From a candidate division FCPU426 bacterium (lineage in GTDB: Bacteria > Oederibacteriota > PGYV01 > Palsa-1178): DNA of 64,000 bases. Below the pieces are notes generated by a model that was not told where the DNA came from, made no database searches, and was given only the letters and a program-made list of their open reading frames with translations. Where the stretch lies: the NCBI GenBank assembly GCA_963840035.1, contig CAWIXE010000002.1, positions 1,184,001 to 1,248,000 on the forward strand, written 5' to 3'. Every line of letters starts with the position of its first letter. Position 1 is the stretch's first letter. Position numbers and translations under genes: made by a program. Shown in pieces: positions 5,265 to 40,678 of the stretch.

Positions 5265-5465
5265 ATCACTCCCGTTAGTTTATTGCGTGTTTAATCAAAA
5301 AAAACTGCGGCAAAACGCGCCATAAATCAATACATTTTATAATAACGCCTGATTAATATCAACCGCAAACAAAACCGCATAAATCGCGGCCTTATGGGGA
5401 TATCAGGGCGCGTATAAGCGCAAAACATAAAAATCAAAAATAAAAATCACCGGGCACATTTCGCC

Positions 5466-20086: not shown

Positions 20087-20088
20087 CT

Positions 20089-20856
20089 TTACCATACCAT
20101 CCATGGCGCTTTATTGCCCTCGACCAGGCCTTCAAGATATGACCTGTCGCGCATGGTGTCCATGCACTGCCAGAATCCCCTGTGTTTAAACGCGCTCAGT
20201 TCATTATCCACGCCGAGTTTTTCGAGGACGTGCTTCTCAAGTATGGTGCTGTCATCTTTTATATAATCAAATATCTCCGGTTCAAGCATCATGAATCCCC
20301 CGTTTATCCAGCCGCCGTCTTCCTTGCGTTTTTCGGAGAACACGGTCTTTTTTCCCTTTATCTCCACGGTCCCGAACCTGCCTCCGGGCTGAACAGCCGT
20401 CACACTCGCTATTTTTTTGGATTTTTTGTGAAAAACAGAAAGTTTTTCCAGGTTCACGTCGGATACCCCGTCGCCGTAAGTCAGCATGAAAGTCTCATCC
20501 CCCACATATTCCCTTATGCGCCCCACCCTGCCGCCTGTCATGGTCTTTAAGCCGGTGTCAACAAGGGTTACCTTCCACGGCTCGGCTATGTTATTGTGTA
20601 TCACCATGCGGTTGTTGTCGGAAAAATCAAAGGTAACGTCGGAGCGGTGTAAAAAATAATTGCTGAAATATTCCTTTATCATGTACCCCTTATAGCCGCA
20701 GCAGATCACAAAATCATTATGGCCGAAATGCGAATAGTATTTCATGATATGCCACAGTATGGGCATGGTGCCTATCTCAATCATGGGCTTTGGCTTTATT
20801 CCGCTTTCTTCGCTTATGCGCGTTCCTGCCCCGCCCGCGAGTATTACAGTTTTCAT
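20089..20856 (-). CDS. rfbF: Glucose-1-phosphate cytidylyltransferase
   Basis: ILAGGAGTRISEE, KPM, DTGLKTMTGGR, TYGDGV, FWQCMDT. Confidence 0.95.
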   Translation of the reverse strand: MKTVILAGGAGTRISEESGIKPKPMIEIGTMPILWHIMKYYSHFGHNDFVICCGYKGYMIKEYFSNYFLHRSDVTFDFSDNNRMVIHNNIAEPWKVTLVDTGLKTMTGGRVGRIREYVGDETFMLTYGDGVSDVNLEKLSVFHKKSKKIASVTAVQPGGRFGTVEIKGKKTVFSEKRKEDGGWINGGFMMLEPEIFDYIKDDSTILEKHVLEKLGVDNELSAFKHRGFWQCMDTMRDRSYLEGLVEGNKAPWMVW

Positions 20857-21058
20857 ATAGCCCTCCTGATATCATTATTATCACACCATATTTATTAATA
20901 ATAACATAATACCGCTTTGTTTTAAAGCGTTTTTTGGGGAAGTAACTTTCCGGGCAGGCATCAATGCCATTGTTTAAAAAGGCCGGGGCCGTGAAAAAAC
21001 AGTTTATTTTAAAGGCGTTTTATATTATAATCAATTATCAAAAATTGAGGAGAAACAT

Positions 21059-21757
21059 ATGAAGCCCAAAAAACTTTCAATAATTATGCCGGTATATAAC
21101 GAGAAAAAGACCATAGAACAGATGGTAAAAACCGTTGAAGACACCCCGCTTAAGGGCTACTTAAAAGAGTTAATAATAGTGGATGACGGTTCGACTGACG
21201 GCACCAGGGACATAATTAAAAAAATGAAAACCCGCTATAAGAACATAAAATTCATACTCAAGGAAAAGAATGAGGGCAAGGGCTCTGCTGTGCGCGAAGG
21301 GATAAAACACGTGACCGGAGACTACGCGGTCATACAGGACGCCGACTTAGAATACGACCCGGCTGATTACACCCGCCTTCTCGGCCCTCTTGAAAAAGGC
21401 TTCGCCGACGTGGTATACGGCTCGCGTTTTATCGGAGGCTCTCACAGGTCCTTCCTGTTCTGGAACTATGTGGCCAACAAGATATTGAATATCGTGACAA
21501 ACATACTGTATAACACCCTTTTAACCGACATGGAGACATGCTACAAAATGTTCAAAGCCGGAATCTTAAAATCACTGGTCCTGCATTCAAATGGTTTTGA
21601 GATAGAGCCGGAAATCACCGCTAAAATCTTAAAAAAGAAATATAAAATTTATGAAACCCCGATAAACTTTTATGGCAGGGGTTACGAAGAAGGCAAAAAG
21701 ATAAAAGCCAGCGACGGTTTTATCGCTTTATGGACTTTAATAAAAAACAGGTTTTAA
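21059..21757 (+). CDS. GT2 glycosyltransferase (DPM1-like polyprenol-phosphate glycosyltransferase)
   Basis: IMPVYNE, VDDGSTDGT, QDADLEYDP, YGSRF, TDMETCYK, EPEIT; GAGGAG RBS upstream. Confidence 0.9.
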   Translation: MKPKKLSIIMPVYNEKKTIEQMVKTVEDTPLKGYLKELIIVDDGSTDGTRDIIKKMKTRYKNIKFILKEKNEGKGSAVREGIKHVTGDYAVIQDADLEYDPADYTRLLGPLEKGFADVVYGSRFIGGSHRSFLFWNYVANKILNIVTNILYNTLLTDMETCYKMFKAGILKSLVLHSNGFEIEPEITAKILKKKYKIYETPINFYGRGYEEGKKIKASDGFIALWTLIKNRF

Positions 21758-21854: not shown

Positions 21855-24215
21855 TCATGGTGTAACATTCGTATTGTTGTCAAACTGGGGCATTATCGCG
21901 AACTTTTGCGTTTTGCGCTCAAGCCTTCCTTCTGAATTCTTCGACTCGATTACCGCTATGTAGTAACCCGCGCCTATCGTATCCCCGTTGCTGGCCTTGA
22001 CATCCCAGGCCACCATGCCGTCTTCAAGTTTTGCCTTGAATTTCTTGACCTGCTCGCCGTTGATATTATATATGTAAACTGTAACCCATCCTGTGCCCAC
22101 ATATGTCCAGCCGATGATGATATGGTCCACCTTTGAGACTTCAGGGCCTTTATACGGGTTTGGCATGACCTTTATCTCGCCAAGCGTAGAAACCGCGGTT
22201 TCATTCAGGACTATGATAGTCCTGGAATCAACGCTGGTCCTGCCGGATGAATCCTTAAGTATAAACTGCAGCTCATAAGTTCCGTTGCCCACCCTTATGC
22301 CCTGGCTGTTCTTGCCGTCCCAATAAAGGTAATCAGGCCCTTTGCCGTATTGTATGGCAATCGGCGAAGCAACCTTGTCAAAACCAAGGACAGGGTTATC
22401 GTTATAAAGTTTTACGCTCAGTTTGTCCACTACGGGATTATCGATCCTGATAATCCTTACTGTCTCTCCCGCACTGTTGAAAATGGACATCTCAAGGTAA
22501 TGGTCCATCGTAATGACGTTAATGTCCTTTATTAATACAGTTGTATGGTCATATGTGTCCGTCTGTTCTATCTGTATGTAATACTTGCCCGGCGAGACTG
22601 TCTGCAGCGCCGAATTATCCGCCTGCCAGAACCATGATGTAGACCCGTTGCCAAGCGTGGAAGGGGTTCCGAGCCCCGGGAATTTCAGCTCAAGCGCCTG
22701 GCCCGGCCCGACTATATTTTTCGAATCCGTACCGACATACAGGCTTACGTCCTGCATGAGCTTATTGCATACATCCTGTGCTATCACCTTAACAAGCTCC
22801 CCTGCCTCGTTATATACGCCTATCTTTATGGTGTAAGGGAACGGGGGCCTGGTGGGCGTTATCGTCGGCGTGCTGGTTACGGTGTTAGTCACGGTAAATG
22901 TGGGCGTGGCAGTCCTTGTCGGGGTATCGGTGGGCGTCGCAGTCATCGTATCGGTGCTTGTGTAAGTCGGGGTTGCCGTCGAGGTATCCGTGGCCGTGTA
23001 GGTAAAAGTCACCGTCTGGGTGGCTGTATATGTCGGTGTAGCCGTATAGGTAAATGACTGGGTCGGGGTAGCAGTATATGTGTTGGTGTCGGTATATGTG
23101 GGCGTGGCCGTCCTTGTAGCCGTATATGTCGGAGTGTAGGTCGGGGTATAAATGGGCGTATCCGTAAATGTCGGTGTGGCTGTATATGTGGAAGTGTATG
23201 TCGGCGTCGCGGTGGATGTGTTTGTCGCGGTAAATGTGGGGGTATGCGTCGGCGTATTTGTCGGGGTGTACTGCGGCGTATTAGTAGATGTAAGCGTGTA
23301 TGTCGAAGTTTGCGTGTAAGTCGAGGTATAAGTGCTTGTGGAAGTATAGGTGTTTGTATATGTATAGGTGGACGTCATGGTATATGTCGAAGTGGACGTC
23401 CTTGTGCTCGTCGACGTGGGCGTATAGGTCACGCTCGGGGTATTTGTCGATGTGGGTGTAAATGACGGGGTGCTCATCAAAATCGGCACAAAAGCGCAGC
23501 TGGTGGAGCCTTTGGAATCATAAACGCAGTTCAGCTTCCCCACGGTCGTAGGCGACGCTGTCGCTGTAGGTATGGAACATGGCAATTTGCCCCTTTGTGA
23601 ATCAATTGTCCCGAGAGCATCAGTCCATTCCATCTCAAGTACTCCGCCCCTGAATAGCGCCACGTTGGCATAATTTGACATGACGGCCGGAGCCCTTGTA
23701 TAATCGTCGCAGGCCGGGTCCATGGGATTGAGCCATCCAGTGACAGCTAAATTCATGGTAACCGACGTCCATCCGCCGGGAGGTATGGCTGCCGCAGGCG
23801 TATAATCCTGTGTAAACTGCCATGTTGCCCCTTCGATGGCGCACGAGAACGCGCTTGCTGAAGCAGCGCCTATGCTGCCGCCATTTCCCTGATATCCCGC
23901 GGTCGAAGGATAAGCTGCCGAATAAATACCGCCTATCTGCGGTGAATTATTAAAAGGCGCGGCTGAAGAGTTTGTCCAGACCGCTATGGTAAAAGGGCCG
24001 GCAACGGGTGCCGCCGTATTATTTATGATGACGCAGCTTATATTCTGGCTCTGGTTGGTACAGCCGCTCTGGGTCTGCACGCACATAAGGTTAAGCCCGG
24101 CCGCTGCAAACAATGAAGACGACATGGCGCAGAAAACAGAGACAATCAGCGCAGCCTTCAGCTGAGTACGTGAGATAAAGCCTCTTTTACTGTTTGCCAA
24201 TTCCTGACTTTTCAT
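21855..24215 (-). CDS. Secreted stalk protein B1: signal peptide, CBM3-like domain, Cys-bracketed Asn hairpin, Thr/Pro stalk, C-terminal FlgD-Ig/sorting-like domains
   Basis: ATG 24215 with GGGAGA RBS (ORF-track start 24233 is TTG); signal ending SSLFA; long T-x alternating tract; YNEAGELVK, WDGKN, PNPYKG, IYNINGEQVK motifs. Confidence 0.8.
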   Translation of the reverse strand: MKSQELANSKRGFISRTQLKAALIVSVFCAMSSSLFAAAGLNLMCVQTQSGCTNQSQNISCVIINNTAAPVAGPFTIAVWTNSSAAPFNNSPQIGGIYSAAYPSTAGYQGNGGSIGAASASAFSCAIEGATWQFTQDYTPAAAIPPGGWTSVTMNLAVTGWLNPMDPACDDYTRAPAVMSNYANVALFRGGVLEMEWTDALGTIDSQRGKLPCSIPTATASPTTVGKLNCVYDSKGSTSCAFVPILMSTPSFTPTSTNTPSVTYTPTSTSTRTSTSTYTMTSTYTYTNTYTSTSTYTSTYTQTSTYTLTSTNTPQYTPTNTPTHTPTFTATNTSTATPTYTSTYTATPTFTDTPIYTPTYTPTYTATRTATPTYTDTNTYTATPTQSFTYTATPTYTATQTVTFTYTATDTSTATPTYTSTDTMTATPTDTPTRTATPTFTVTNTVTSTPTITPTRPPFPYTIKIGVYNEAGELVKVIAQDVCNKLMQDVSLYVGTDSKNIVGPGQALELKFPGLGTPSTLGNGSTSWFWQADNSALQTVSPGKYYIQIEQTDTYDHTTVLIKDINVITMDHYLEMSIFNSAGETVRIIRIDNPVVDKLSVKLYNDNPVLGFDKVASPIAIQYGKGPDYLYWDGKNSQGIRVGNGTYELQFILKDSSGRTSVDSRTIIVLNETAVSTLGEIKVMPNPYKGPEVSKVDHIIIGWTYVGTGWVTVYIYNINGEQVKKFKAKLEDGMVAWDVKASNGDTIGAGYYIAVIESKNSEGRLERKTQKFAIMPQFDNNTNVTP

Positions 24216-24269
24216 GTTTTTCTCCCGGGACAATCCCGTTTTTCTTTTGATATAACGGCAGACTTTTTT

Positions 24270-26621
24270 TTACGGTACCGCAGTCACCTTGCCGACCCAT
24301 GTGACGCTCTGGTTGCAAGTTCCTTTGGGGATATCCCCGAGGCTCCACGATACCGTACCTGTGCCGGGGCATCCCGTACAGCCGCCTGTGCAGCTTGTAC
24401 ACTGTACCCCTGCCGGAACAGGATCTGTTATCACATAATTATGAAGCACTCCTACGCTGTCGTTACAGTATGTTATGATCCATGTAATATTGTCGCCATT
24501 TAAAACAGGTGTTAAAGGTAACGCGGTTTTCGTTAAACCGGTTATTTCAGCGCAGATCGGGCTTGCGATTACCCTGTTCGACTTCTGCGCGATTATGCCC
24601 GTGCCGCCAATCCAGCTTTCATTGGTTATGGGGTTGCATGATTTGACCTTGCCCCACCAGGTAAGCGAACCGCCTTCATCCTGCAGATTGCCGAGGTTAA
24701 AAGTAACAACTCCGCCCGCGAACGACCCTGATTTCGGCGCGGCAGGCGTGTTCATTCCCGTATAAACGACTGATCCGTCGTTGTTATTAGGAAGCGTGTC
24801 CCATACAGTGGTTGTGGCCGCGGTAAAAGGGTTGTACACCACAAAATTATTATATGAATCCTTTGCATATTTCGTGGCATCGTCCCCGCCCTGCTCGGCT
24901 ATACCCGGCCTCCAGTTGGAGCCGTTATTGCAGTTAAGCGCTGTCCTTCTTGCCGCGTCCGTATCGTTCCATTCTATCTGGTATCCGCTCGGTTCCGGGT
25001 CGCCCTTTGGCCACGCCTTTGCCATGAAATGGTACTGGTTCGCCGGGTCAATCCAGATCTTCACGCGCCACCATTTGTTCGCGGTAATTGTCGGGTCCGG
25101 CTGGCCCGGTATGGCCACCGCTGGAGGCCAATAACATCCCGGCCCCGCGGTACAAGCCTGGAATTCTATATGGCCGGCGGTATACCCGCCGATGTTTTTA
25201 TCCACGGATATTGCCAGGCCGTACGCATTGCCGCTGGCAAGCCCGTCGTTCCTGATAAATATCATCGCGTCGGAACCTTCGTAACCGTTCGGGTCTATCA
25301 ACACATCCGTTTCTATGATGCCGCTGCACATTTTGGAAGTTGCTGGAAGGCCGTTAAACAATAACGCGGGATACTGTTTTGTGGCGCTTACCGAACCTGT
25401 TATGACCCTGTCCCCGGTGTTGCAGTTGTCCGCGACTTCCCACTGCCCTTCAGTCCCGTTTTGAGGAACAAAACTCCATCCGGGTACGGCGGGGCCACCT
25501 ATGCCGTATTTGCCGTATATGCCGTTTGGTATGTCGTCAAAAGGCTGGTATCCGACAAGCTCCATTCCGTTTACATTATATGTGAGTATGTAAGTGATGT
25601 TATCATCGTATGACGGGTTTGATTCGCTCTGGTCCTTTATAATGGATACAGCGGCCTGGCCGACCGTGTTTGTGGCATCAGCGGGCACGCTTCCAACCAA
25701 TGGCATGGTGCCTGTCGCGCTGTTTTTGTATTTTGTGTTGAATACCGGCGCTGTAGCCTGCCTGTATAGCATCCAGACAGTACCGCTGGCAGTACCCGCC
25801 ATACCTGTCCTGTCATACATGGTCCAGGAAAAATTCCCGGTGGACGCGCCGACGGCAGGCCCCGTAGCCGGCACGCCGGCTATGGATGTAGGGCCGAAAG
25901 AAACGAGCTGCAGCGCGCCGCCGTTAGGAGGCACAATATCGGTTATGGAAAACGGCCCGTTCCAGTATTCATAATCTATTGAAAATAAAACGAGGTCCCC
26001 GATTATCTGTACAGCGCCCACGGTCCTTTTGCTTATTGAAAAGCCCCTGGGTATTGTGCCTATGTTCCATGATAACGCCGGCGGGTCCAGTGCGCATACG
26101 GACGAACCGATCCATTCAGGGGCGTTAAGGTTTTGGTCTTTCATTCCGACATACAGGTAGAGTTTTGTGACGTTGCATCCTGGATAATAAGATGCCGGGG
26201 GGACATGCACGGTATATGTGACTGTGCGTATGGTGCTCTGGACATTATTATTGCAATCTGTGCAGTTGCCTGTGCCCGGCCCGTTCGGGTTCGCATTTGC
26301 AAGCCAACCTATCTCTCCGCCGGTCGTCGCCTGCGGCTGGGAAGTGGCCACATCTATCCCCGCCCTGCTCACCACAAAAACCTGGCCGTTTCCCGAGAGT
26401 TCAGCGCTGGTCTTAGTCGGCTGTGAACTGATGGCTATGTCTATCATGGCTGCGTTATAGTTTTGGGAGCAGTATCTTACGGTGATATCCACCGCATCCC
26501 CGAAAGTCGGGGTTGAGGGGTTCATGGTGACGCTTATGACCTTAGGACCTGCAGCAAGAAAAGCTGCAAACAGCATGAACGCCATCATAAAAACTGTATT
26601 TTTAAGGAAATTTCCGCTCAT
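24270..26621 (-). CDS. Secreted Cys-rich protein A1: N-domain, DUF11-like domain 1, DUF11-like domain 2 with inserted ConA/LamG-like module, C-terminally truncated DUF11-like domain 3
   Basis: Signal peptide; repeated (S/T)(I/L)xK...GDxxT(Y/W)xxxY...TDxxP...W...N pattern; KWWRVKI module; no C-terminal sorting domain. Confidence 0.75.
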   Translation of the reverse strand: MSGNFLKNTVFMMAFMLFAAFLAAGPKVISVTMNPSTPTFGDAVDITVRYCSQNYNAAMIDIAISSQPTKTSAELSGNGQVFVVSRAGIDVATSQPQATTGGEIGWLANANPNGPGTGNCTDCNNNVQSTIRTVTYTVHVPPASYYPGCNVTKLYLYVGMKDQNLNAPEWIGSSVCALDPPALSWNIGTIPRGFSISKRTVGAVQIIGDLVLFSIDYEYWNGPFSITDIVPPNGGALQLVSFGPTSIAGVPATGPAVGASTGNFSWTMYDRTGMAGTASGTVWMLYRQATAPVFNTKYKNSATGTMPLVGSVPADATNTVGQAAVSIIKDQSESNPSYDDNITYILTYNVNGMELVGYQPFDDIPNGIYGKYGIGGPAVPGWSFVPQNGTEGQWEVADNCNTGDRVITGSVSATKQYPALLFNGLPATSKMCSGIIETDVLIDPNGYEGSDAMIFIRNDGLASGNAYGLAISVDKNIGGYTAGHIEFQACTAGPGCYWPPAVAIPGQPDPTITANKWWRVKIWIDPANQYHFMAKAWPKGDPEPSGYQIEWNDTDAARRTALNCNNGSNWRPGIAEQGGDDATKYAKDSYNNFVVYNPFTAATTTVWDTLPNNNDGSVVYTGMNTPAAPKSGSFAGGVVTFNLGNLQDEGGSLTWWGKVKSCNPITNESWIGGTGIIAQKSNRVIASPICAEITGLTKTALPLTPVLNGDNITWIITYCNDSVGVLHNYVITDPVPAGVQCTSCTGGCTGCPGTGTVSWSLGDIPKGTCNQSVTWVGKVTAVP

Positions 26622-26724
26622 ATATTTCCTCCAAATTTTACTTCATAAATTAGACATCGAAAACTATATATAGTTTCGGTAATTTTAAGGAAAACTTTAC
26701 ACATTTCTTATAAAACAACACCTT

Positions 26725-26753
26725 ATTTTATACAATTATAGGAATTATGTCAA
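26725..26753 (-). promoter_or_regulatory. Sigma70-type promoter for the A1-B1 pair
   Basis: TTGACA (26748-26753), 17 nt spacer, TAAAAT (26725-26730). Confidence 0.65.
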
Positions 26754-26770
26754 ATATTATTAAGGGAGGT

Positions 26771-26969
26771 ATTTTCAATTTTAAATTTTCTATTTTCAAT
26801 TAAAATCCAGTACAGAAAACGCCATATTTTATTGATATTTTCTGTTTTACAGCACAAGATTTCACCCCTGTAGCGGCCGCATTTAATGCGGCCTCTGCAA
26901 AAACAACAAAACGCCAGTTTCCCGGCGTCTTGTTGTTTAATTGAAAATTGAAAATATAAAATTGAAAAT
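26771..26969. repeat. Intergenic inverted repeat built from ATTTTCA-like heptamers, enclosing a REP-like hairpin and a terminator-like hairpin
   Basis: Arms 26771-26804 and 26936-26969 match at 32/34. Interior has GTAGCGGCCGCATTTAATGCGGCC (26870-26893) and an imperfect AACAAAACGCC...GGCGTCTTGTT hairpin. Confidence 0.75.
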
Positions 26970-26973
26970 CGCC

Positions 26974-29900
26974 CTAATACACATTCCCCAAATTCCCGTT
27001 TTGCATCATGACGGCTATCTTTGCCGTTTTCCTCTCGAGCAGACCCTCTGAATTCCTGGAATTAATTACAGCCACATAGTATCCAGCCGCTATTGGTTCT
27101 TCCCCGTTGCTTGCCATGAGATTCCATGCCACACCGCCGTCCTCAAGCCTGGCTTTAAATTTCTTTACCTGCTCGCCTTGCAGGTTATAAATATATACAG
27201 TAACCCATCCTGTCCCGGTAAATGACCAGCCTATGTCTATGTGGTCTACCTTTGAAACCACAGGGCCCCTGTAAGGGTTTGGCATTATTTTCACATCGCC
27301 AAGCGAAGAGTCTATTCTTTCATTTAATATATTCACTGTCCTTGAACCCTGTATCATCCTTCCCGAGTGGTTGGTAAGGACGAATTGTATCTCATAAACG
27401 CCGTTGCCCACCCTGACCCCGAGGTCATTTTTCCCGTCCCAGTCTATAAAACTTCCGGGCGCGTATTCAATTGATACCGGATTGTCATTTTTACCAAAAC
27501 TTATATCTTCCTCAATCTTTAGCGTAAGTTCATCAGCAGCCGGATTATTCACCCTGATAGTCCTGACCGCCTCGCCTGCCGTGTTAAACACCTTCATCTC
27601 GACATATCTGTCAAGATGCAGCACGGTTATGTCTTTTATAAGGACCGTCACATGGTCATAAGTGTCTTTTTGCGATATCTGTATGTAATATTTTCCCTGC
27701 GACACCGGCTGGTTTGCTGTATTATCCGCCGCCCAGGTGAAAACGGTAAAACCGTCCTGTATGGTATCAGGCGTGCAAAGCCCCGGGAAATTTATCGAGA
27801 GCACTCCGCCGGGCCCGATTATGCTGTCAGCGGCCCCGCCGGTTGACATCCAGACGTTCTTCATGGCCGCGGTGCATGGCTCTTCGGCTATGAATTTAAC
27901 CAATTCCCCCGCCTCGTTATAGACGCCGATCTTTATCATGTACGGAAATGGCGGCTCAGTCGGCGTGATAGTCGGCGTATTAGTCACTGTCCTTGTGGCA
28001 GTCAGCGTGGGCGTATGCGTCCTTGTATCTGTCGGCGTCGCTGTTTCAGTCACGGTCTGGGTCGATGTCTTTGACATAGTCTGCGTGAATGTGAAAGACT
28101 CGGTAGGCGACGCGGTAAGCGTCGGCGTGGCGGTAAAAGTCGGCGTCATGGTTTTTGTATTTGTATCAGTCGGGGTCGACGTGCGCGTAAACTCGGGCGT
28201 ATGGGTAAATGTCGGCGTGTGGGTGGACGTGGACGTATATGTCGGCGTATCCGTGTTTGTGGGCGTGGGTGTGGCTGTATCGGTATATGTGGAAGTGGCG
28301 GTCCTGGTAGGCGTGGCAGTGCTTGTCGGTGAATATGTAGGGGTCACTGTGGGCGTGAATTCCGGCGAATTAGTATACGTAGGCGTCACCGACGGTGTGG
28401 CTGTCCTCGTGGCTGTCGCGGTATATGTGTCCGTGGCAGTCGGCGTGGCCGTCCTTGTGGCCGTGTCGGTGCTTGTCGGCGTATGCGTAGACGTTGCCGT
28501 AAATGTGAATATCACCGACTGCGTAAATGTCGGGGTCGCTGTCATGGTCGCGGTCTTAGTCGGCGTCGATGTCTTCGTGTCCGTGGCTGTATAAGTGTCT
28601 GAAGGCGTGGAAGTCAGCGTGTATGTCGAAGTTGCCGTCCTGGACGGCGTAGCCGTAAGAGTGTTTGTGTACGTGGAAGAAGGCGTATATGTCGGCGTAT
28701 TTGTCCTCGTTGAAGTGTATGTGGACGTCGGCGTATTTGTCTTCGTTGCCGTGGATGTGGGGGTATTGGTAGGCGTGCTGCAGAGCACTTTGAGCGATAC
28801 GATGTTTGAGTACACAGGCTGGCCTGAAGCGCCGTCTATGTACGCGCTGTTGGTTATGGCGGCCGGGTCCTGTGTGCAATCCACCCTGCCCCACCATGTA
28901 AGCGAACCCGTCTGGTTTGTAAGCGAACCCATATCCCATTTCACAGTCTGATTAGGCGCCGTGCCTGCCACAGTTGCCGCGCCTCCGGGGCCCGTTCCTG
29001 AACCAAGATACGTGATTCCCAGCGGCACAGTGTCCAGTACCACGGTATTCTCGCTTGAAGACCTTTCCTTATATATAGTAAAGTTATCGTATGAGTCCTT
29101 TACATCCTTTGAATTTCCTGTCTGCTCATTTACTCCCGGACGCCAGTCTTTATATGTCCCTGTCCCGTCGCAAATCCACGCGGCGTCTGAATTTAACAGG
29201 GGGTCTGTATAATCTATGTCCCAATTTGTCGGCTCAGAATCGCCCCTGGGCCATATCCTCGCCCTTATCCTCTGCCCTCCGCCGGAATTAGTAACCCAAA
29301 TCCTTACCCTGTACCATTTATTTGCCGACGGGTAGCCAATTGACGGCGCCGGACCGCCCGGAGTCACGCCGATGTAGGTACACGTCGTCCCGGCGCACTT
29401 CTGATACATTAAAAAACCGGGGGTTGGGGCTTCATCAATGGATACCACAATGCCTATTCCCTGCGCTGCTCCGCCGCTTTGCCCGTTATTCCTGATGACG
29501 ATCTGCCCGTCAGCCCCCGGGAACGTGCCCGGGTCGATCTTTATGTCAGAAACTATGATGCCTGTGCAGAACTGGTCGCTGTCAGCCGGAAGGTGCGGGG
29601 CCGCGCTGCCGTCATTTAAAAGCATTCCAGGATACATATCCGAAGCTCCGGTAAATACCCTGTCGCCGGTGCTAAAACCCGTGCACGGGTCTCCGACAGT
29701 CCAGGTTGTCGCGGCAGTGCCGCCCACCGGCATCCATCCGGCCGGCGCCCCTGACGGGCCGATATAATTACCCGCGGCTATGTCGTCAAACCCGCTGAAA
29801 CTTTTTAATATGTAACCATTAATGTCGTATGAAAGCGTATAAGTTATGGTGTCGCCGCTGTTTAAAACCGGGGCGCTTTCTGATTTTGTCAGGCTGACAG

Positions 29901-30864
29901 CCGTGGCGCCCGTTGTGACCGTGGCCGGAGGCGTGTCATAATTTGGCTGGCCGTTCATGGAGCCGTGGGCTATATTTGAATATGAACCCGATGGAACTCC
30001 TGTAACCGCGCACAGCATCCACACCGTGCCTTTTACAGAGCCATTGATGCCTGTCCTGTCCGGGAAAGTCCACGTGATAGTCCCCGCTGAATTCACAGCG
30101 CTTCCCGCAGGCGGCCCGGGGATTGTCTGCGGCCCCCATGAAATAAGTGTGAAGCCTGCCGGTACCGAGTCAACTATCTTAAAATTGCTGCCGTTTGCAT
30201 ATTCGTAATCCACCGAAAAGAGCACTTTGTCCCCTGCTGCCTGAAGCACTCCCTCATACCTTTTTGCTATCTTAAAATATGTCGGGAAGGTCGGGACATC
30301 CCAGCTTATTGCTTTTGCCTGGCATGCCGCAAGCGGCTGCGAACCCACAGGATCCCAGCTCTGCGCGCCTGAGAGGTAAGAATTTTTGGCGGCTGCGTGG
30401 ACATACAGTTTTGTCAGGTTACAGTTTGGGAAATTATCGGCATTGGGTATTTTTATGGTGTAATGAAGCCTGACCGTCCTTGACGGGTCTCCCGCGTTGC
30501 AGCCATTCGTGCATGGGGTGGGAGTAAGCGCCGGCAGCGACGAGAGCTGTACGAGGTTAGGGTCCTTGTATCCTATCTCGTCCTCGGATGATAAAAATGT
30601 AATCTTTTCCTTATTTACCCCATACTTGGTCACCATGAAAACCTGCCCGCCGCTGCCCGGGGTTGTCCTTACAGGAGATTGGCTTATGGCAAGGGCTATC
30701 TGAGCCTCATTATAATTATTCGTGCACATGTCAACATAGACATCGACAATCTGTCCGAACACAGGCTGGGCCGGGACCATTGTAATCCCTATTATCTCAG
30801 GTTCGGCAAATACAAATGCCGCCATAAGAAGGGACATAATTAAAAGCACAAGTTTTCTCAGCAT
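26974..30864 (-). CDS. Secreted protein C: one-gene fusion of an A-type head (N-domain, two DUF11-like domains, ConA-like insert) with a B-type Thr/Pro stalk and FlgD-Ig/sorting-like C-terminus
   Basis: N-half collinear with 24270..26621 and 33937..36243; C-half collinear with 21855..24215 and 31150..33879 (PPFPY.IKIGVYNEAGELV, PNPY). Confidence 0.8.
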   Translation of the reverse strand: MLRKLVLLIMSLLMAAFVFAEPEIIGITMVPAQPVFGQIVDVYVDMCTNNYNEAQIALAISQSPVRTTPGSGGQVFMVTKYGVNKEKITFLSSEDEIGYKDPNLVQLSSLPALTPTPCTNGCNAGDPSRTVRLHYTIKIPNADNFPNCNLTKLYVHAAAKNSYLSGAQSWDPVGSQPLAACQAKAISWDVPTFPTYFKIAKRYEGVLQAAGDKVLFSVDYEYANGSNFKIVDSVPAGFTLISWGPQTIPGPPAGSAVNSAGTITWTFPDRTGINGSVKGTVWMLCAVTGVPSGSYSNIAHGSMNGQPNYDTPPATVTTGATAVSLTKSESAPVLNSGDTITYTLSYDINGYILKSFSGFDDIAAGNYIGPSGAPAGWMPVGGTAATTWTVGDPCTGFSTGDRVFTGASDMYPGMLLNDGSAAPHLPADSDQFCTGIIVSDIKIDPGTFPGADGQIVIRNNGQSGGAAQGIGIVVSIDEAPTPGFLMYQKCAGTTCTYIGVTPGGPAPSIGYPSANKWYRVRIWVTNSGGGQRIRARIWPRGDSEPTNWDIDYTDPLLNSDAAWICDGTGTYKDWRPGVNEQTGNSKDVKDSYDNFTIYKERSSSENTVVLDTVPLGITYLGSGTGPGGAATVAGTAPNQTVKWDMGSLTNQTGSLTWWGRVDCTQDPAAITNSAYIDGASGQPVYSNIVSLKVLCSTPTNTPTSTATKTNTPTSTYTSTRTNTPTYTPSSTYTNTLTATPSRTATSTYTLTSTPSDTYTATDTKTSTPTKTATMTATPTFTQSVIFTFTATSTHTPTSTDTATRTATPTATDTYTATATRTATPSVTPTYTNSPEFTPTVTPTYSPTSTATPTRTATSTYTDTATPTPTNTDTPTYTSTSTHTPTFTHTPEFTRTSTPTDTNTKTMTPTFTATPTLTASPTESFTFTQTMSKTSTQTVTETATPTDTRTHTPTLTATRTVTNTPTITPTEPPFPYMIKIGVYNEAGELVKFIAEEPCTAAMKNVWMSTGGAADSIIGPGGVLSINFPGLCTPDTIQDGFTVFTWAADNTANQPVSQGKYYIQISQKDTYDHVTVLIKDITVLHLDRYVEMKVFNTAGEAVRTIRVNNPAADELTLKIEEDISFGKNDNPVSIEYAPGSFIDWDGKNDLGVRVGNGVYEIQFVLTNHSGRMIQGSRTVNILNERIDSSLGDVKIMPNPYRGPVVSKVDHIDIGWSFTGTGWVTVYIYNLQGEQVKKFKARLEDGGVAWNLMASNGEEPIAAGYYVAVINSRNSEGLLERKTAKIAVMMQNGNLGNVY

Positions 30865-30934
30865 GTTCTCCCTTTCGTTGTTAACCGTTTAAATATATGG
30901 ACAAAAAAAATGAGGTTTAGTTCCTCACCAAAAT

Positions 30935-30963
30935 AGTATATTTTACAATTATAAACGTGTCAA
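30935..30963 (-). promoter_or_regulatory. Sigma70-type promoter for gene C
   Basis: TTGACA (30958-30963), 17 nt spacer, TATACT (30935-30940). Confidence 0.65.
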
Positions 30964-31023
30964 TTGGTATAAACCGAATGGTTTCTCAATGCGGAACAAA
31001 AAATTGAAAGGGTTCAATGAAGG

Positions 31024-31149
31024 CGAATTTTCGATTTTCAATTTTAAATTTTCAATTAAAGTCAAAATGCCGTACTTATAAACCAAAAACGCCCGCATCC
31101 GGGCGTTTTTGGTTTATATAATTGAAAATCGAAAATTCAAAATTGGAAA
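31024..31149. repeat. Heptamer-based intergenic inverted repeat enclosing a terminator
   Basis: Left arm CGAATTTTCGATTTTCAATTTTAAATTTTCAAT; right arm ATTGAAAATCGAAAATTCAAAATTGGAAA. Confidence 0.7.
31081..31114 (-). terminator. Intrinsic terminator after B2
   Basis: AACCAAAAACGCCCG-catc-CGGGCGTTTTTGGTT. Confidence 0.75.
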
Positions 31150-33879
31150 TTATTTCTTACTCACTATCGCCATCTTCAGGGTCTTCATTTCTATGACGCC
31201 CTTTTCATTTTTGGATTCAAATAACACGACATATTTGCCGTCTGCCGCCTTTTCACCGCTTACGGTCTTTAAGTCCCAGCGGACAAATGTCTCTGAGAGC
31301 CTGCACTTGAACTCCTTGACTTTTTCGCCTGCCATGTTATATATCGCTATTTTTATTTCACCGGGGGATGCCGTTATCCAGCTGAAAGTTATCACCTTGT
31401 TAACGGATTTGCCCTTGAAATACGGGTTTGGCGATATCATGATGCTGTTGAGGAATTTGTCCTTTACATGCAGCACGGTAACGGCTTTTGACTCCACCTT
31501 AGTCCTGCCCTGGTTATTCACAAGGTTAACCTGTATCTCGTATACGCCGTTATCCACCGCGATCCCCTGCTCGTTATTCCCGTCCCACTTGACATAATCT
31601 GTGAGGTTGTTTCCATATGTAATGGTTACATCGGTGTACACCTTGTCAAAACCATAGTAAGTCGGAACTTTTAGCGAGATATTTGACGGCGAGAGCGTCT
31701 TATACTCTTTCATCAGCTTTACCAGTTCGCCCGCGCTGTTATAAATGTCTATCTCAACATATTCCCTGACGTCAATGGTGGTTATGGTCTTTATCAGCAC
31801 GTTAGTATGCGCATATTTGTCCACCTGCTCGAACTTGATGTAATACAGTCCGTTCCCCGTGGGCTGGTTGGCGTCGGTTATGGAATCCCATGTGAAAGTG
31901 GTGCCGCCGACGCCCTGTCCTATGTTCTCAGGCGTCAGTACGCCGGGCAGGTATATGCTCAGAGGATTATCGCTTGATATCATATTTACGTTATTTACGC
32001 CGCCGGAGCTGAATAATATATCCCCGATGGGCATGTTAGTGGCGGTTAACCCAATTTCCCTGACGAGTTCGCCTGCCTCGTTGTATACCCCGATCTTTAT
32101 TATATATGGAAACGGCGGCGGAGTGGGCGTGACCGTGGGCGAATCAGTGACTGTAAACGTCGGGGTGGCAGTGGGCGTGTGCGTGAATGTAACGGTATAT
32201 GTAGGGCTGTCCGTCATGGTGTACGTCGGAGTATATGTGGGGGTCGCCGTGTATGTCGATGTGGGCGATGACGTGGCTGTGAAAGTCGGGGTTCCCGTGC
32301 TCGTCGGCGTCGCGGTATATGAGCTTGTCGGCGACATAGTGCTTGTATAAGAAGGCGTCGCGGTAAATGAAGGCGTGGCAGTATACGTAAATGAAGGCGT
32401 TTGCGTTCCGGTATATGTCGAGGTTGCCGTAAATGAAGGCGTGGCAGTATAAGTAAATGAAGGGGTTTGTGTGGCAGTATATGTCGACGTTGACGTAAAT
32501 GTAGGCGTGGGTGTGTATGTAAATGAAGGCGTCGGGGTGGCGGTATATGTCGAAGTGGGCGTAAATGTCGGTGTGTCCGTCGGCGTAAATGTCGGCGAGA
32601 AGACCATGGTCAGCGTGAATGTCGGGGTCGCGGTGTAAGTACTGGTCATGGTAGGGGTATCAGTCTTGGTGGATGTCATGGTATAAGTGCTTGTCGCGGT
32701 AAATGACGGCGTGGCTGTCGGCGTATAAGTGGCTGACGTAGTATCTGTCTTTGTGGATGTGGCCGTATATGTGGGTGTGGCGGTATAAGTATTTGTGGGC
32801 GACGTTGTATCCGTCCTTGTCGCTGTCGCGGTATATGTAGGCGTCGGCGTGGACGTGTTTGTGGATGTGGACGTGTAAGTCCTTGTGGAAGTGGCTGTAT
32901 AAGTCGGAGTCGGCGTGGACGTGTCTGTGGAAGTGGCGGTATATGTCCTTGTGGAAGTGGCGGTATATGTCGGCGTAGGCGTGGACGTGTCTGTGGATGT
33001 CGGGGTATTAGTCCTTGTGGCAGTCATCGTGTAGGTTGAGGTCGGCGTGTAGGTGTTTGTGGAAGTGGGAGTATTTGTAAAAGTCGGCGTGCTCGTCCTT
33101 GTGTAAGTATATGTGGACGTAGGCGTTATAGTCCTGGTGGCCGTATATGTCGGGGTAAATGTCGGGGTGGAAAGCTGAATTTCCACGAACGCGCAGCTCG
33201 TATTCCCTGTTTTATCTATCGCGCAGTTCATTATGCCGACCGTTGTCGGCGTAACTGTGGCCGAAGGAATAGAACATGGAATCGTGCCATAAACCGCGTC
33301 ATTTACTGCTCCCGCCTCAAAAATCACCCAATTAGGATCCGCATGAAGCGTAGTAGAACCCGGCTTCGAATAATCATCGCAGGCAGAATCAAATGGGGCT
33401 GCGTACCCATCCCTATATATCTGTATATTCGGGTTACTTGAGCCGTCTGCTTTGCCATAATAACCGCCGGGGGGAATTGTGGCCGCGCCGCTTGAAAAAG
33501 TCATGTCTATGACATAATTTGCGTCTGGGCACGTGCCTGCCATATAAGCGGTCGGACCAGAGTACGATACAGTTCCATAATAACCCAGATCTACTCCGGC
33601 CGAATTATATATGTTTGTGCCATAAAAACCCTGAACCGTCATCACTTGTGCCGCTGCCATTTTCAGGTAGATACGCACATGCAAATCAGATAAAGTCACA
33701 GGCACAACGTCATTATTGATAATCCTATAACCCGCGTCAAAGGTATTGCCTGTACACGGGTCAGTACCCCTGTTTCTTACTTCCAGGGACAGGTTATGCG
33801 CAAAAATGACGGAATAAAGGAATACGGCAAGAACAACAAAGACAACTCTTTTTGCCATCCCTCTCTTCTTAATATCCAT
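31150..33879 (-). CDS. Secreted stalk protein B2: signal peptide, CBM3-like domain, Cys-bracketed Asn hairpin, long Thr/Pro stalk, FlgD-Ig/sorting-like C-terminus
   Basis: AGGAG RBS; signal ending SVIFA; LSDLHVRIY, ANYVIDMTFSSGAATIPPG, DDYS, VYGTIP; SPNPYF. Confidence 0.8.
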   Translation of the reverse strand: MDIKKRGMAKRVVFVVLAVFLYSVIFAHNLSLEVRNRGTDPCTGNTFDAGYRIINNDVVPVTLSDLHVRIYLKMAAAQVMTVQGFYGTNIYNSAGVDLGYYGTVSYSGPTAYMAGTCPDANYVIDMTFSSGAATIPPGGYYGKADGSSNPNIQIYRDGYAAPFDSACDDYSKPGSTTLHADPNWVIFEAGAVNDAVYGTIPCSIPSATVTPTTVGIMNCAIDKTGNTSCAFVEIQLSTPTFTPTYTATRTITPTSTYTYTRTSTPTFTNTPTSTNTYTPTSTYTMTATRTNTPTSTDTSTPTPTYTATSTRTYTATSTDTSTPTPTYTATSTRTYTSTSTNTSTPTPTYTATATRTDTTSPTNTYTATPTYTATSTKTDTTSATYTPTATPSFTATSTYTMTSTKTDTPTMTSTYTATPTFTLTMVFSPTFTPTDTPTFTPTSTYTATPTPSFTYTPTPTFTSTSTYTATQTPSFTYTATPSFTATSTYTGTQTPSFTYTATPSFTATPSYTSTMSPTSSYTATPTSTGTPTFTATSSPTSTYTATPTYTPTYTMTDSPTYTVTFTHTPTATPTFTVTDSPTVTPTPPPFPYIIKIGVYNEAGELVREIGLTATNMPIGDILFSSGGVNNVNMISSDNPLSIYLPGVLTPENIGQGVGGTTFTWDSITDANQPTGNGLYYIKFEQVDKYAHTNVLIKTITTIDVREYVEIDIYNSAGELVKLMKEYKTLSPSNISLKVPTYYGFDKVYTDVTITYGNNLTDYVKWDGNNEQGIAVDNGVYEIQVNLVNNQGRTKVESKAVTVLHVKDKFLNSIMISPNPYFKGKSVNKVITFSWITASPGEIKIAIYNMAGEKVKEFKCRLSETFVRWDLKTVSGEKAADGKYVVLFESKNEKGVIEMKTLKMAIVSKK
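32350..33000. repeat. 66-nt (22-aa) period tandem duplications inside the Thr/Pro stalk of B2
   Basis: GGCGTGGACGTGT recurs at 32846, 32912 and 32978; GTAAATGAAGGCGTGGCAGTAT recurs at 32363 and 32429. Confidence 0.75.
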
Positions 33880-33936
33880 TTTCGCATCTCCTAATGATAC
33901 ATTACAATTTATATTTCACCGCGTATACCGTGCCTC

Positions 33937-36243
33937 TTACGGATATGTTACCCTGCCCCACCACGTGAATATGCCGGAAGCTCCCGGCGCCAGCAATGGT
34001 ATGGTTAATTTCACCGGATTGCCGAATGTACAGCTTCCCGCAGGCGCGAGGCATCCAAGCGCGTTCATGTACGGCGGCCATGTGTCGGTTATTGTGTAAT
34101 TAGTGATATTGGCCAGACCATTATTTTTGTAAGCAATATACCATGTAACCGTGTCCCCCGACACAACCAGCGGAACATTTGCCGTCTTTGTTATGCTGGA
34201 TATTTCCGGGCATACCGGATATATCACCACTTCATTTGACCTGACGCCCGCAGCTGTCGCCGAAATAAGGTCACCCGTGTTGGTTATCGGGTCGCAGGTC
34301 GTTACCCTTGCCCACCATGTAAACGATCCGCTTTCATTTGTAATAGGGGCCAGGTCAGCAAGGTTCCAGTCCAATACAGGCGGCCCGCCAACAAGCGTGT
34401 GCGGCCCGCTCTGCCCGAGGTAAGTCAGCGGAAGCGGCACTGTATCATAAAGATGCACTGACGCGGACGTGCGCGGCGCCGTTATGATGAAATTATTGTA
34501 TATGTCCTCTGTTACGCCTTTTGCCCCGCCCTGCTCGCCAAAACCGGAATAAAACGGCCCTGATGGGTCCGTGCACGGAATGCATGTCGCGGCGGTATAT
34601 GTTTTCTGCCAGCCCGGTTCAGCGTCGCCTTTGGGCCACACTTTATACCTGAATGTGCAGTCAGATGTCGCTTCGATCTTTGCCACATACCATTTATTCG
34701 CCACTATGTCAAATGGCGGGTCAAAAACAGAAGTAGCTGCCCATGTACAGCCCGGCACGCATTCCTGTATGGACATGTTACCGCCTGCTACTCCGCCGGG
34801 ATTTTCGTCAATTGATATAACAAGGCCATATGCCCTGCCGTCTCCGGGCGCGGTCTTCCCGTTATCCCTTATGATGACAAGCGCGTCAGAGCCCTCGTAT
34901 CCCTGCGATGACGCCTCATTGCCCGGGTTTATCATGACATCTGTCGTGATGGTGCCGAGGCAGAAATTATAGCCGCTGTATAAAAGCCCCGGATAATTCG
35001 TGGAACCCATAGTTCCCCTTATGGCCCTGTCGCCTGTGCCGCACTGGTCCTCTATGGTCCATGTCCCTGTCTTTCCGCCTTCGGACCTGAACTGCCATCC
35101 TGTCGGGGGCGTGGGGTCTGTGTATGAAGTTTTCGGGAAGTTATCAAATGGCTGGAACGCTTTCAGCACGTCTCCGTTTATGGAGTAATCAAGGTAATAC
35201 GTGACATCAGTTCCCACCGGCACATTTATCTGCTCAGCGGATTTTTTAAGCGTCATGACAGACGATCCGATCTTCACGTTTGTCGAAGCCGGCTTTGTAG
35301 TCGCCCCCATCTTTCCCTGCGCGGTATTATTTATCACAACGCCGTCGCCCGGGTCGGTGTTTAAGCTGTAAAGCATCCATACAGAGCCGCTTGCAGGCGT
35401 TGGGTCGCCTGACCTGTCCTTAAATGTCCATGTAAAAGCATTTGCCAGCGGACCCACTGTCCCGATTACGGGGCCGGTCGCCGTCACATAAGGCGCGTCC
35501 GTAGTAGGCCCGTATGCAACGAGCTTCAAGTATGGGGGCATGGAGTCGGTCAACTGAAGTATGCCCTTCTGGTATGTGAAATCTATGGCAAAAACAACAA
35601 GGTCGCCCACGTCCTGCAGGACGCCTTCAGCCCTTTTGCGTATGGAAAAACCAGGCTGCAAAGGGGGCATGGCCCAGGTAAGCGATTCGGAAGTGCAAGC
35701 GTCCCTTGTGGCCCATTCGCTTTCATTTAAGTTCGCGTCTTTCATGCCGACGTGAAGGTATAGATTGGCTATGGTGCATCCCGGGAAATTTTCAGCATCA
35801 GGGACACGAACCGTGTATTCCCTGTAATATAGATTTCCGCTGCCGGACGGGCATACAGTGCACTGCCCGAGGTCAGCGTTTAACTTGACATTTGCCAGGC
35901 AACCTATCTCGCCGCCGGGCGATGAGGAAGGCTGTGATGTCGGAGGCATTGGCGCGCAGTTCCCGGTTTTAGTTCCGTATACCACAAATACCTGTCCAAT
36001 CCCGGTCAATGCGGCAGACTGAAGGCCCGCGTTTGAACTTACCGCTATATCCATCATAGCATCATTATATCCCTGGGCGCAGTATGTAACTTTAACAACA
36101 AACGAGTCGCCAAAACCCGGGTTAGGAGGTACCATACTTACGCTTACAACACGCGGGTCTGCAAACGCGAAAGACGCAAAAATGAATAATATGGAAAATA
36201 TGGAAAAGAATAATTTGTTTTTATTTAGGAAGGTCCCGCTCAT
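33937..36243 (-). CDS. Secreted Cys-rich protein A2, paralog of A1, ending in a truncated DUF11-like domain
   Basis: Signal ending SFAFA; GGAGG RBS; same domain order as A1; ends ...FTWWGRVTYP*. Confidence 0.75.
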   Translation of the reverse strand: MSGTFLNKNKLFFSIFSILFIFASFAFADPRVVSVSMVPPNPGFGDSFVVKVTYCAQGYNDAMMDIAVSSNAGLQSAALTGIGQVFVVYGTKTGNCAPMPPTSQPSSSPGGEIGCLANVKLNADLGQCTVCPSGSGNLYYREYTVRVPDAENFPGCTIANLYLHVGMKDANLNESEWATRDACTSESLTWAMPPLQPGFSIRKRAEGVLQDVGDLVVFAIDFTYQKGILQLTDSMPPYLKLVAYGPTTDAPYVTATGPVIGTVGPLANAFTWTFKDRSGDPTPASGSVWMLYSLNTDPGDGVVINNTAQGKMGATTKPASTNVKIGSSVMTLKKSAEQINVPVGTDVTYYLDYSINGDVLKAFQPFDNFPKTSYTDPTPPTGWQFRSEGGKTGTWTIEDQCGTGDRAIRGTMGSTNYPGLLYSGYNFCLGTITTDVMINPGNEASSQGYEGSDALVIIRDNGKTAPGDGRAYGLVISIDENPGGVAGGNMSIQECVPGCTWAATSVFDPPFDIVANKWYVAKIEATSDCTFRYKVWPKGDAEPGWQKTYTAATCIPCTDPSGPFYSGFGEQGGAKGVTEDIYNNFIITAPRTSASVHLYDTVPLPLTYLGQSGPHTLVGGPPVLDWNLADLAPITNESGSFTWWARVTTCDPITNTGDLISATAAGVRSNEVVIYPVCPEISSITKTANVPLVVSGDTVTWYIAYKNNGLANITNYTITDTWPPYMNALGCLAPAGSCTFGNPVKLTIPLLAPGASGIFTWWGRVTYP

Positions 36244-38608: not shown

Positions 38609-38622
38609 ATAACACCCCGTGA

Positions 38623-38725
38623 TGAATTTTCAATTCTAAATTTCAATTTTCAATTAGAATCTAATACAGTACAAAAACTTCTTTATGCTTTAATTGAAAA
38701 TTTAAAATAGAAAATTGAAAATTCG
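38623..38725. repeat. Heptamer-based intergenic inverted repeat
   Basis: GAATTTTCAATTCTAAATTTCAATTTTCAATTA ... TAATTGAAAATTTAAAATAGAAAATTGAAAATTCG. Confidence 0.7.
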
Positions 38726-38728
38726 TAT

Positions 38729-40675: not shown

Positions 40676-40678
40676 TTT

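Follow-up and report, generated by a model that had tools for sequence, protein, structure and literature searches.

The window analysed here, a stretch of 64,000 nucleotides from a candidate division FCPU426 bacterium, carries two pairs of head and stalk genes, A1/B1 and A2/B2, and a related gene, C, all on the minus strand. A1 (24270..26621, 783 aa) comprises a signal peptide, an N-terminal domain, two complete CLIPPER-like domains and a C-terminal truncated CLIPPER domain, here called the catcher (24273..24560, residues 688-783), which has six strands with Lys698 (codon 24528-24530) and Asp733 (codon 24423-24425) and lacks the Asn strand. It has neither a stalk nor a C-terminal sorting domain, and its second CLIPPER-like domain contains an insert (24825..25568) that language-model features likened to LamG, DUF6645 and 3-keto-disaccharide hydrolase, a likeness to be taken as a lead only. 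A2 (33937..36243, 768 aa), the second head protein, is 42% identical to A1 and also has a catcher at its C-terminal end (33940..34218, residues 676-768; Lys686 codon 34186-34188, Asp720 codon 34084-34086). C (26974..30864, 1,296 aa) is a paralogue of the A heads fused to its own stalk and C-terminal domain; it represents the unsplit architecture, without a third CLIPPER domain.

B1 (21855..24215, 786 aa), which most likely starts at the ATG at 24215 rather than at the TTG at 24233, consists of a signal peptide, a CBM3-like head (23562..24104), a short linker, a 22-aa hairpin here called the tag (23478..23543; Asn229 codon 23529-23531), a Thr/Pro stalk and a FlgD_ig-type C-terminal domain. The CBM3 likeness of the head (Atlas score 0.94, 191/256 features shared) has a low recognition value and is likewise a lead only. 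B2 (31150..33879, 909 aa) has a signal peptide, a head related to that of B1, a 23-aa tag (33172..33240; Asn218 codon 33226-33228), a Thr/Pro stalk and a FlgD_ig-type C-terminal domain. Both tags are flanked by Thr/Pro linkers, and a purine-rich ribosome-binding site, an ATG and a hydrophobic N-terminus were found for each B gene, as an earlier note on this DNA had described. FlgD_ig scored above the cut-off in B1, B2 and C, and Por_Secre_tail weakly, below the cut-off, in B2. In the source genome 71 ORFs end in a related C-terminal domain, which was present at the end of 17/17 proteins containing intact domains only and of 4/4 tag scaffolds. It may be a sorting signal of the T9SS type.

The earlier note had proposed that the terminal domain of A1 and A2 is a DUF11 domain cut at its C-terminal side, and that the hairpin of the B protein is the missing piece. 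All six Lys, Asp and Asn codons, the protein ends (...WVGKVTAVP* in A1, ...WWGRVTYP* in A2) and the Lys, Asp and Asn motifs in both complete domains of A1, A2 and C were as it had given them, and a search for in-frame continuation beyond the stop codons of A1 and A2 found none. Pfam DUF11 (PF01345) matched the terminal domains with 26.7 bits in A1 and 44.9 bits in A2 (cut-off 24.6), the match being restricted to profile positions 4-83 and 3-83 of 114, respectively, and the terminal-domain Lys and Asp aligned to K10 and D44 of the CLIPPER structure 9IFR. The A1 catcher modelled alone with AlphaFold2 gave six strands (pLDDT 92) with 9IFR as the best structural match (Z 9.9, rmsd 2.2, 91 aligned), covering entry residues 18-113 of 18-140; an intact relative covered residues 18-140 (Z 13.9, rmsd 2.5, 112 aligned) and had two extra strands. 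The bond-forming Asn806 of 9IFR is at chain position 101 (entry number 118). A complete domain is a sandwich of seven to nine strands whose own chain carries the Asn in its penultimate strand; the catcher, with six strands, ends before the Asn. The terminal domain of A1 and A2 is a truncated member of the CLIPPER/DUF11 family, rather than a complete one, that has kept the isopeptide Lys and Asp. Foldseek gave no match to the catcher at E <= 0.001, with 9IFR at rank 16, and integrin and adaptin Ig folds scored within about 1 Z of 9IFR against the model, so that the fold match alone is insufficient to name the family.

Seven catchers and six tags were identified in the source genome, and 86 further catchers in 26 related genomes, all of which are kin. 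Lys and Asp were each present in 86/86 of these catchers, and an Asn-strand motif followed 39/53 intact domains versus 4/86 terminal ones. The earlier note had taken a terminal domain stable on its own as an argument against the split; the outcome was ambiguous, because AlphaFold2 was confident in the lone catcher, which nevertheless had just six strands. It was also noticed that 72/86 catchers carry a conserved C-terminal tail (P-aromatic...E-aromatic-aromatic-A) that is not accounted for by strand complementation. This tail, the confident lone fold and the existence of orphan halves would fit a catcher that is completed by its own tail, by a second copy of itself or by another partner, with the tag binding a different protein. 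We regard such a completion as highly unlikely, because the tail is without an Asn strand and because in A1, A2 and 14/86 other catchers it is absent or nearly so while the tag still adjoins; a profile of the tail alone matched nothing in the genome, missing even the genome's own tails, and is therefore uninformative.

Completion by the tag was examined with an Asn-blind search, in which islands were sought in the stalk genes without use of the Asn. Tag islands were found in 51/62 stalk genes following a catcher versus 1/34 controls among the related genomes and, among the 94 Thr-rich stalk ORFs of the source genome, in 4/4 ORFs after a catcher versus 1/90 others (Fisher p = 1.6e-6). The most conserved column of these islands was the Asn (54/57). 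A leave-one-genome-out tag profile detected 40/62 stalk genes after a catcher, 0/34 controls and 0/90 own-genome controls. A loose regular expression was dropped in favour of these tests as too permissive (13/90 own controls; 7/35 locus controls, including one genuine tag), and the Asn of one alignment (A5), invariant by construction, was excluded as evidence. The internal tags sit 200-700 residues into the partner protein. The two Cys, which the earlier note had placed as bracketing the hairpin, lie instead within it at Asn+1 and Asn+11 in both B1 and B2; this pair occurs in just 10/51 tags. Of the 19 Cys-bearing tags, 18 contain a single Cys pair, placed at +1/+11, -1/+13 or -3/+15; these pairs slide in antiparallel register, which indicates a hairpin. 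The proposal that the hairpin corresponds to the missing piece held against the controls. Evidence for homology of the tag to the last two strands was mixed: a tag profile matched the end of an intact domain with E 0.0016 in one search and 10.7 bits in another, and the hairpin register fits, but hhalign detected no similarity between tags and intact domains (the C-terminal part of the alignment being poorly aligned), and Pfam DUF11 matched 0/51 tags.

These counts also bear out the claim that the two halves are genomically coupled. About 8/86 catchers are followed by an unrelated or tag-less gene, and two tag scaffolds have no upstream catcher; both carry tags that are the same as, or differ little from, a paired tag of their own genome, which, like the parallel variation of catchers and tags in number and subtype, argues against a partner other than the tag. 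A catcher-tag Mantel correlation (rho 0.59) was not taken as co-evolution, because neighbouring genes are inherited together. A scan of genome contigs with the catcher as sole query gave no match, and a search of 1.84 billion representatives returned multi-repeat giants only.

The system had been described as present twice. Both pairs in the window are real, but this scope is too small, as the lineage also has scaffolds with several tags, chains in series and unpaired halves. Catcher and tag counts were equal in 8/12 multi-catcher clusters, with three of each at G000:C3:405121-426015 and in L033 and two of each in L037 and L040; in one cluster, three heads precede a single 5,421-aa scaffold with three tags. 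At C3 the predicted partners are the 243-aa head and tag 1, the 443-aa head (and likewise the orphan at C1:911489) and tag 2, and the 633-aa head and tag 3. Two catchers with one tag seen were found in L123, L038 and L039, and the second catcher of L063 is a remnant. A particular subtype of catcher and a particular subtype of tag occurred together in G000 and L033 and were both absent from L037 and L063. Serial chains were found in L032, L034, L035 and L036, all four from one family.

An unsplit A-family protein in one relative (L155) has a third domain that is intact and closes with a hairpin of tag length, followed by a stalk and a sorting domain; this form speaks for the tag as the missing part of the catcher. 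The gene at C3:265958 in the source genome resembled a catcher but is a true frameshifted paralogue and was rejected. The fused form and the frameshift could also suggest that the split is a broken fusion gene or an assembly error that left functionless strands behind. This is most improbable, since each B gene has its own RBS and encodes a signal peptide and a complete head ahead of the tag, the break lies at the same point in 26 other genomes, the tags have multiplied to match the catchers and the Cys pairs move in register; such conservation effectively refutes it already. In a tree built by a quick method (141 rows, 93 columns), which does not tell how many splits took place or in what order, the catchers cluster (8 changes versus 42.9 shuffled).

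The truncation, the division of the triad over two genes, their adjacency and, in most clusters, the equal numbers of tags and catchers are observed in the sequence. We consider it probable that the tag hairpin completes the catcher fold, itself a likely step, and that a predicted autocatalytic Lys-Asn isopeptide then fixes the unanchored head to the stalk scaffold. After export from the cytoplasm, the hairpin would dock at the catcher's open edge, its positions -2, 0 (the Asn), +2, +12, +14 and +16 pointing into the core. The buried Asp would then catalyse the loss of NH3 between Lys698 of A1 and Asn229 of B1, or Lys686 of A2 and Asn218 of B2, and the bond would form by itself, without an enzyme. 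As the heads have no C-terminal sorting domain, they would rely on that of the scaffold for surface retention and possibly for export too. The module occurs in three arrangements: as a single pair, in parallel, with one multi-tag scaffold for several heads, and in series, where a head is followed by a tag-plus-catcher protein and this by a scaffold. Assembly would yield a surface fibre with branches and several heads, glycan binding being its most likely role.

The covalent bond is predicted on the grounds that the split triad is conserved and that 9IFR has a proven bond of this type within one chain. Alternatively, the hairpin might complete the fold by donor-strand complementation without an isopeptide, the Lys, Asp and Asn forming a buried polar network. 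This is unlikely, yet all the genomic evidence tests pairing rather than chemistry. The bond is absent from some CLIPPER domains (PMC12617251), and bond-less oligomers of BsaA N35A resist SDS until heated (10.1101/2024.11.04.621531). Against a non-covalent joint stand the invariance of the catcher Lys and Asp and the top rank of the Asn among the tag columns, most other positions being widely variable. An aromatic residue also precedes the Asp in 75/86 catchers; aromatic caps are described as common in CnaA-type bonds (PMC12617251), and a role as such a cap is our own suggestion for this residue.

The split with its predicted covalent bond may be compared with several known systems. CLIPPER/DUF11 domains (PF01345, 9IFR; PMC12617251) share the fold and family, the first-strand Lys, catalytic Asp and penultimate-strand Asn, and the occurrence in stalked surface proteins; the published bond is intramolecular, within one chain, whereas here the Asn hairpin comes from another gene. 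The words "split" and "truncated" are absent from the main text of that paper, although its supplementary Table S2, which covers CLIPPER domains without the bond, may include truncated examples. In DogTag/DogCatcher, similarly, the Lys and a catalytic acid lie in the catcher; the tag, a 23-residue C-terminal beta-hairpin, contributes the reactive Asn and also works at internal positions (PMC8878318). Engineered pairs, however, were obtained by splitting either RrgA domain 4, in which the catalyst is a Glu, or designed proteins (PMC8878318; 10.64898/2026.08.13.744004), and designed pairs can bind well yet react slowly (10.64898/2026.08.13.744004). The present split is natural and CLIPPER-based, with 9IFR as the closest structure, the Asp in 86/86 catchers and several tag subtypes.

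Clostridium perfringens BsaA is a natural case in which a strand is donated and a Lys-Asn bond between molecules then forms autocatalytically, as mutagenesis supports, but it is a TasA-family homopolymer with a single N-terminal donor strand, a Glu catalyst and a SipW operon (10.1101/2024.11.04.621531). In the archaeal thread protein Saci_0406 and in chaperone-usher pili, an incomplete Ig-like fold is also completed by a strand from another subunit, and the thread apparently has intermolecular isopeptides too; however, the donors are single N-terminal strands, the filaments are linear, the thread bond joins an Asn to an N-terminal amine, and the pili require a chaperone and an usher (PMC9715654). 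The present system, unlike BsaA, involves two different proteins and a putative internal two-strand donor and would give finite branched assemblies. Our literature searches found no published natural two-gene Tag/Catcher pair, the closest being the intramolecular CLIPPER bond, engineered DogTag/DogCatcher and the BsaA homopolymer. Tag/Catcher ligation is familiar from protein engineering, and those natural isopeptide links by strand donation that were found in print are homopolymers.

In the cellulosome, modules from separate genes attach through a terminal docking domain to an anchored scaffold on which the docking sites are repeated. Cohesin and dockerin have folds unrelated to CLIPPER, and their binding is non-covalent and calcium-dependent. 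Neither cohesin nor dockerin Pfam families were found in six window and 24 locus proteins, nor glycoside hydrolase families on 24 scanned of 93 catcher proteins, most heads being without any Pfam match. We give an even chance to the wider reading that the clusters are a natural, covalent counterpart of the cellulosome scaffold that needs no enzyme, in which several mutually selective subtypes of a lineage-wide split-CLIPPER family let one mucin-like stalk with a putative sorting signal gather a particular set of heads made from other genes, side by side or in chains, and carry them as surface passengers. Heads might then be swapped in from orphan genes at other sites in the genome, and the subtypes would constitute a ready library of orthogonal hairpin Tag/Catcher pairs.

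If true, the split would be a new bacterial route to branched surface structures with repeated docking sites that needs neither sortase nor usher, and it would explain how many anchor-less signal-peptide proteins of this lineage are retained. Together with their divergent tags, which naturally lie at internal positions, the 90-odd catchers are candidates for orthogonal protein glues, and the minimal system, a 95-residue protein and a 22-residue peptide, is directly testable. It was also noticed that the named relatives include Candidatus Goldbacteria, reported to be cellulose-binding degraders (PMC7031533).

Reading of the ORFs revealed five genes on the minus strand of the window, in the order A2 (33937..36243), B2 (31150..33879), C (26974..30864), A1 (24270..26621) and B1 (21855..24215), A1 and A2 being head proteins and B1 and B2 stalk proteins. 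The six codons that the earlier note had assigned to the Lys and Asp of A1 and A2 and to the Asn of the putative tags in B1 and B2 were all correctly positioned on re-reading, and the Lys, Asp and Asn motifs were found, as claimed, in both complete domains of A1, A2 and C. A1 and A2 did end right after the W-x-G-x-V strand, with no in-frame continuation past either stop, and B1 and B2 proved to be separate genes, each having its own RBS, start and hydrophobic leader. Directly downstream of B1 (14684-21757) are genes that, from ORF reading, we take to be for glycosyltransferases and nucleotide-sugar synthesis; given this neighborhood, it is possible that the Thr-rich stalks are glycosylated. 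The region upstream of A2 (36905-42382, minus strand) includes a 567-aa Ig-like protein sharing the C-terminal domain of the stalk proteins, as well as what are presumably a PilB/GspE-like ATPase and a DnaK-like protein.

In Pfam searches, the DUF11 match of the terminal domains was limited to profile positions 4-83 (A1) and 3-83 (A2) of 114. DUF11 has been renamed CLIPPER, for which crystallography revealed a CnaA-like fold in which Lys715 is bonded to Asn806 and an Asp lies nearby (PMC12617251). The profile alignment of the terminal domains (catchers) placed their Lys and Asp on those of the CLIPPER structure 9IFR, and both residues were kept in all 86 catchers of related genomes. An AlphaFold2 model of the A1 catcher had six strands (pLDDT 92) and matched 9IFR best (Z 9.9, entry residues 18-113), whereas that of an intact relative had two strands more and spanned residues 18-140 (Z 13.9); by the numbering derived here, Asn806 is entry residue 118. 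Since other Ig folds closely trailed 9IFR in score, assignment to the family is based on Pfam and sequence; what the structure contributes is the end point. By these criteria, the terminal domain of A1 and A2 is identified as a truncated CLIPPER. It was also noticed that the offset fitting Lys715, Asn806, Cys818 and Cys821 puts the conserved Asp (chain position 44) at 749, while PMC12617251 has Asp-748. In 72 of the 86 catchers of relatives (e.g., those at loci L002, L004 and L018), a conserved tail of 15-57 aa, lacking in A1 and A2, follows the last catcher strand, with the pattern P-aromatic-x-P...K/R-E-Y/F-F/L-A and variable thereafter; it may occupy the empty groove as a placeholder, or be cleaved off.

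The Cys pair had been thought to bracket the tag, but both Cys lie inside the hairpin and the pair is optional: among 51 tags, 18 of the 19 bearing Cys have exactly two, at offsets from the Asn of +1/+11 (10 tags), -1/+13 (7 tags) and -3/+15 (1 tag). These offsets always total 12, as expected of cross-strand neighbors, which argues for a hairpin. In the same 51 tags, hydrophobic residues occupy positions -2, +14 and +16 in 89-100%, and position +2 has a small residue, all on the face of the Asn; as judged from these patterns, the tag forms a hairpin, one face of which is buried. At locus L155, an A-family protein has an intact third domain with a tag-length hairpin at the domain end, followed by a stalk and a sorting domain, and by its sequence corresponds to A and B combined, without the split. 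An intact-domain end of this kind was matched by the tag profile (E 0.0016; 10.7 bits in another search), but neither hhalign nor Pfam detected tag homology to intact CLIPPER/DUF11 domains.

Loci of related genomes were selected by catcher-profile matches and cover part of the matches listed. Their 139 distinct domains were sorted by what comes after them into 86 terminal ones (26 genomes) and 53 with >75 residues beyond. The Asn-strand motif followed 39 of the 53 intact domains versus 4 of the 86 terminal ones, three of the latter being chance matches in tails and one a different split. By a loose pattern, the gene after the catcher carried a tag in 61 of 86 cases; in the others it was another tag-less catcher (5), a stalk gene without the pattern (4), or unrelated or unresolved (9), or too little DNA remained (7). 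As the background of this pattern is near 15%, two stricter tests were applied. Of 62 stalk genes following a catcher, 51 had islands between Thr/Pro runs, sought without regard to Asn, versus 1 of 34 other stalk genes at the same loci, bearing out the genomic coupling claimed earlier. Unanchored alignment of 57 islands gave Asn as the most conserved column (54/57); in a few rows it is a second Asn that is aligned, or the island is no tag. When the test genome was withheld from training, a tag profile detected, at 10 bits, 40 of the 62 versus none of the 34. In the source genome, both tests agreed on 4 of 94 stalk genes, each after a catcher, and the island test gave one additional match, a non-tag. 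A genome-wide search yielded 68 tag matches in 21 of 24 genomes, mostly profile training rows and hence not independent: 63 in genes after catchers, 1 at an intact domain end, 2 in orphan scaffolds and 2 cut by contig ends. The catcher-then-tag order also extends to further classes of the phylum (L117, L118, L120, L122, L123, L125). Catcher-tag pairing is thus strongly supported by genomics, and our verdict from these sequences is that the naturally split CLIPPER module is real and conserved and probably serves modular head-to-scaffold assembly.

We propose that the tag hairpin would complete the catcher fold, that the catcher Asp would catalyze formation of the Lys-Asn bond, and that the bonded head would thereby be displayed on the scaffold. 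Strand complementation of the catcher by the tag is highly probable, and the predicted covalent bond is likely. An FlgD_ig-type C-terminal domain ends all 17 proteins of the source genome whose CLIPPER-like domains are all intact, as well as the four tag scaffolds, and is absent from its seven catchers (partly true by definition); from weak matches to T9SS tails and general knowledge, we infer that it may serve as a sorting and anchoring signal. In this genome, 94 ORFs have Thr-rich stalks and 71 end in a related sorting-like domain. Because protein C has an A head on its own stalk, A plus B would amount to C plus an extra head. The heads look like binding modules: leads include a CBM3-like head in B1 and a LamG-like insert in A1, malectin occurs on one scaffold, and no hydrolase family was found on the 24 of 93 catcher proteins scanned.

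Cohesin-dockerin scaffolds follow a comparable assembly logic; Pfam found neither domain among the scanned window and locus proteins. The chemistry, here predicted from sequence, is shared with CLIPPER, and the geometry with the engineered DogTag/DogCatcher, in which a 23-residue Asn hairpin reacts at internal sites (PMC8878318). The nearest natural mechanisms are the archaeal thread (PMC9715654) and BsaA, whose homopolymer is locked by N-terminal strand donation together with an autocatalytic bond (10.1101/2024.11.04.621531). No natural two-gene Tag/Catcher pair was found in the main texts of the openly readable papers searched. We regard the split CLIPPER module as a new form of isopeptide assembly by strand donation; that it amounts to a new type of selective covalent scaffolding is as likely as not. 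The source lineage probably belongs to Goldbacteria, for which PMC7031533 describes binding and degradation of cellulose.

The source genome has seven catchers and six tags in total. Besides both window pairs, it has a third pair (contig C2:1657782-1665045) and, directly behind three catcher genes, a gene (C3:409750-426015, plus strand) for a 5,421-aa scaffold. The three tags of this scaffold lie within residues 1-660; TQTV/TETA-type repeats make up the next ~4,500 residues, and a sorting-like domain forms the C-terminus. An orphan catcher gene (C1:911489-912832, plus strand), whose catcher is 82% identical to that of the C3 443-aa head, may provide the tag of that head with an alternative partner. 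Catcher and tag counts were equal in 8 of 12 assessable multi-catcher clusters (L041 and L080 left out), comprising parallel clusters (3:3 in C3 and L033; 2:2 in L037 and L040) and serial 2:2 chains of one family, in which the protein in the middle carries a tag as well as a catcher (L032, L034, L035, L036). At L063, one head is intact and one a remnant (5040-5454), versus a scaffold keeping two tags; L123, L038 and L039 have two catchers with one tag seen, and in L038 and L039 the extra and the paired catcher share a subtype in the tree. In the source genome and L033, tag 1 occurs together with the smallest C3 head, and L037 and L063 lack both; this joint presence and absence suggests that pairing is subtype-specific.

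Two orphan scaffolds (L137 and L138, in different genomes) carry tags that differ little, or not at all, from a paired tag at another site of the genome concerned. At L156 (5988-8280), an in-frame stop splits the head gene into 498 and 265 aa, with catcher and tag intact. At L132 (1609-5919), the break falls one strand later: the Asn strand stays with the upstream protein, whose C-terminus is a stub containing Cys, and what the following gene supplies is the last strand alone, also with a Cys. This domain nests among intact domains in the tree (support 97), which suggests a separate origin of the split. An A-family gene of the source genome (C3:265958-268770, plus strand), in which a frameshift disrupts the last strands of a domain that is otherwise intact, was rejected as a pseudogene or assembly error.
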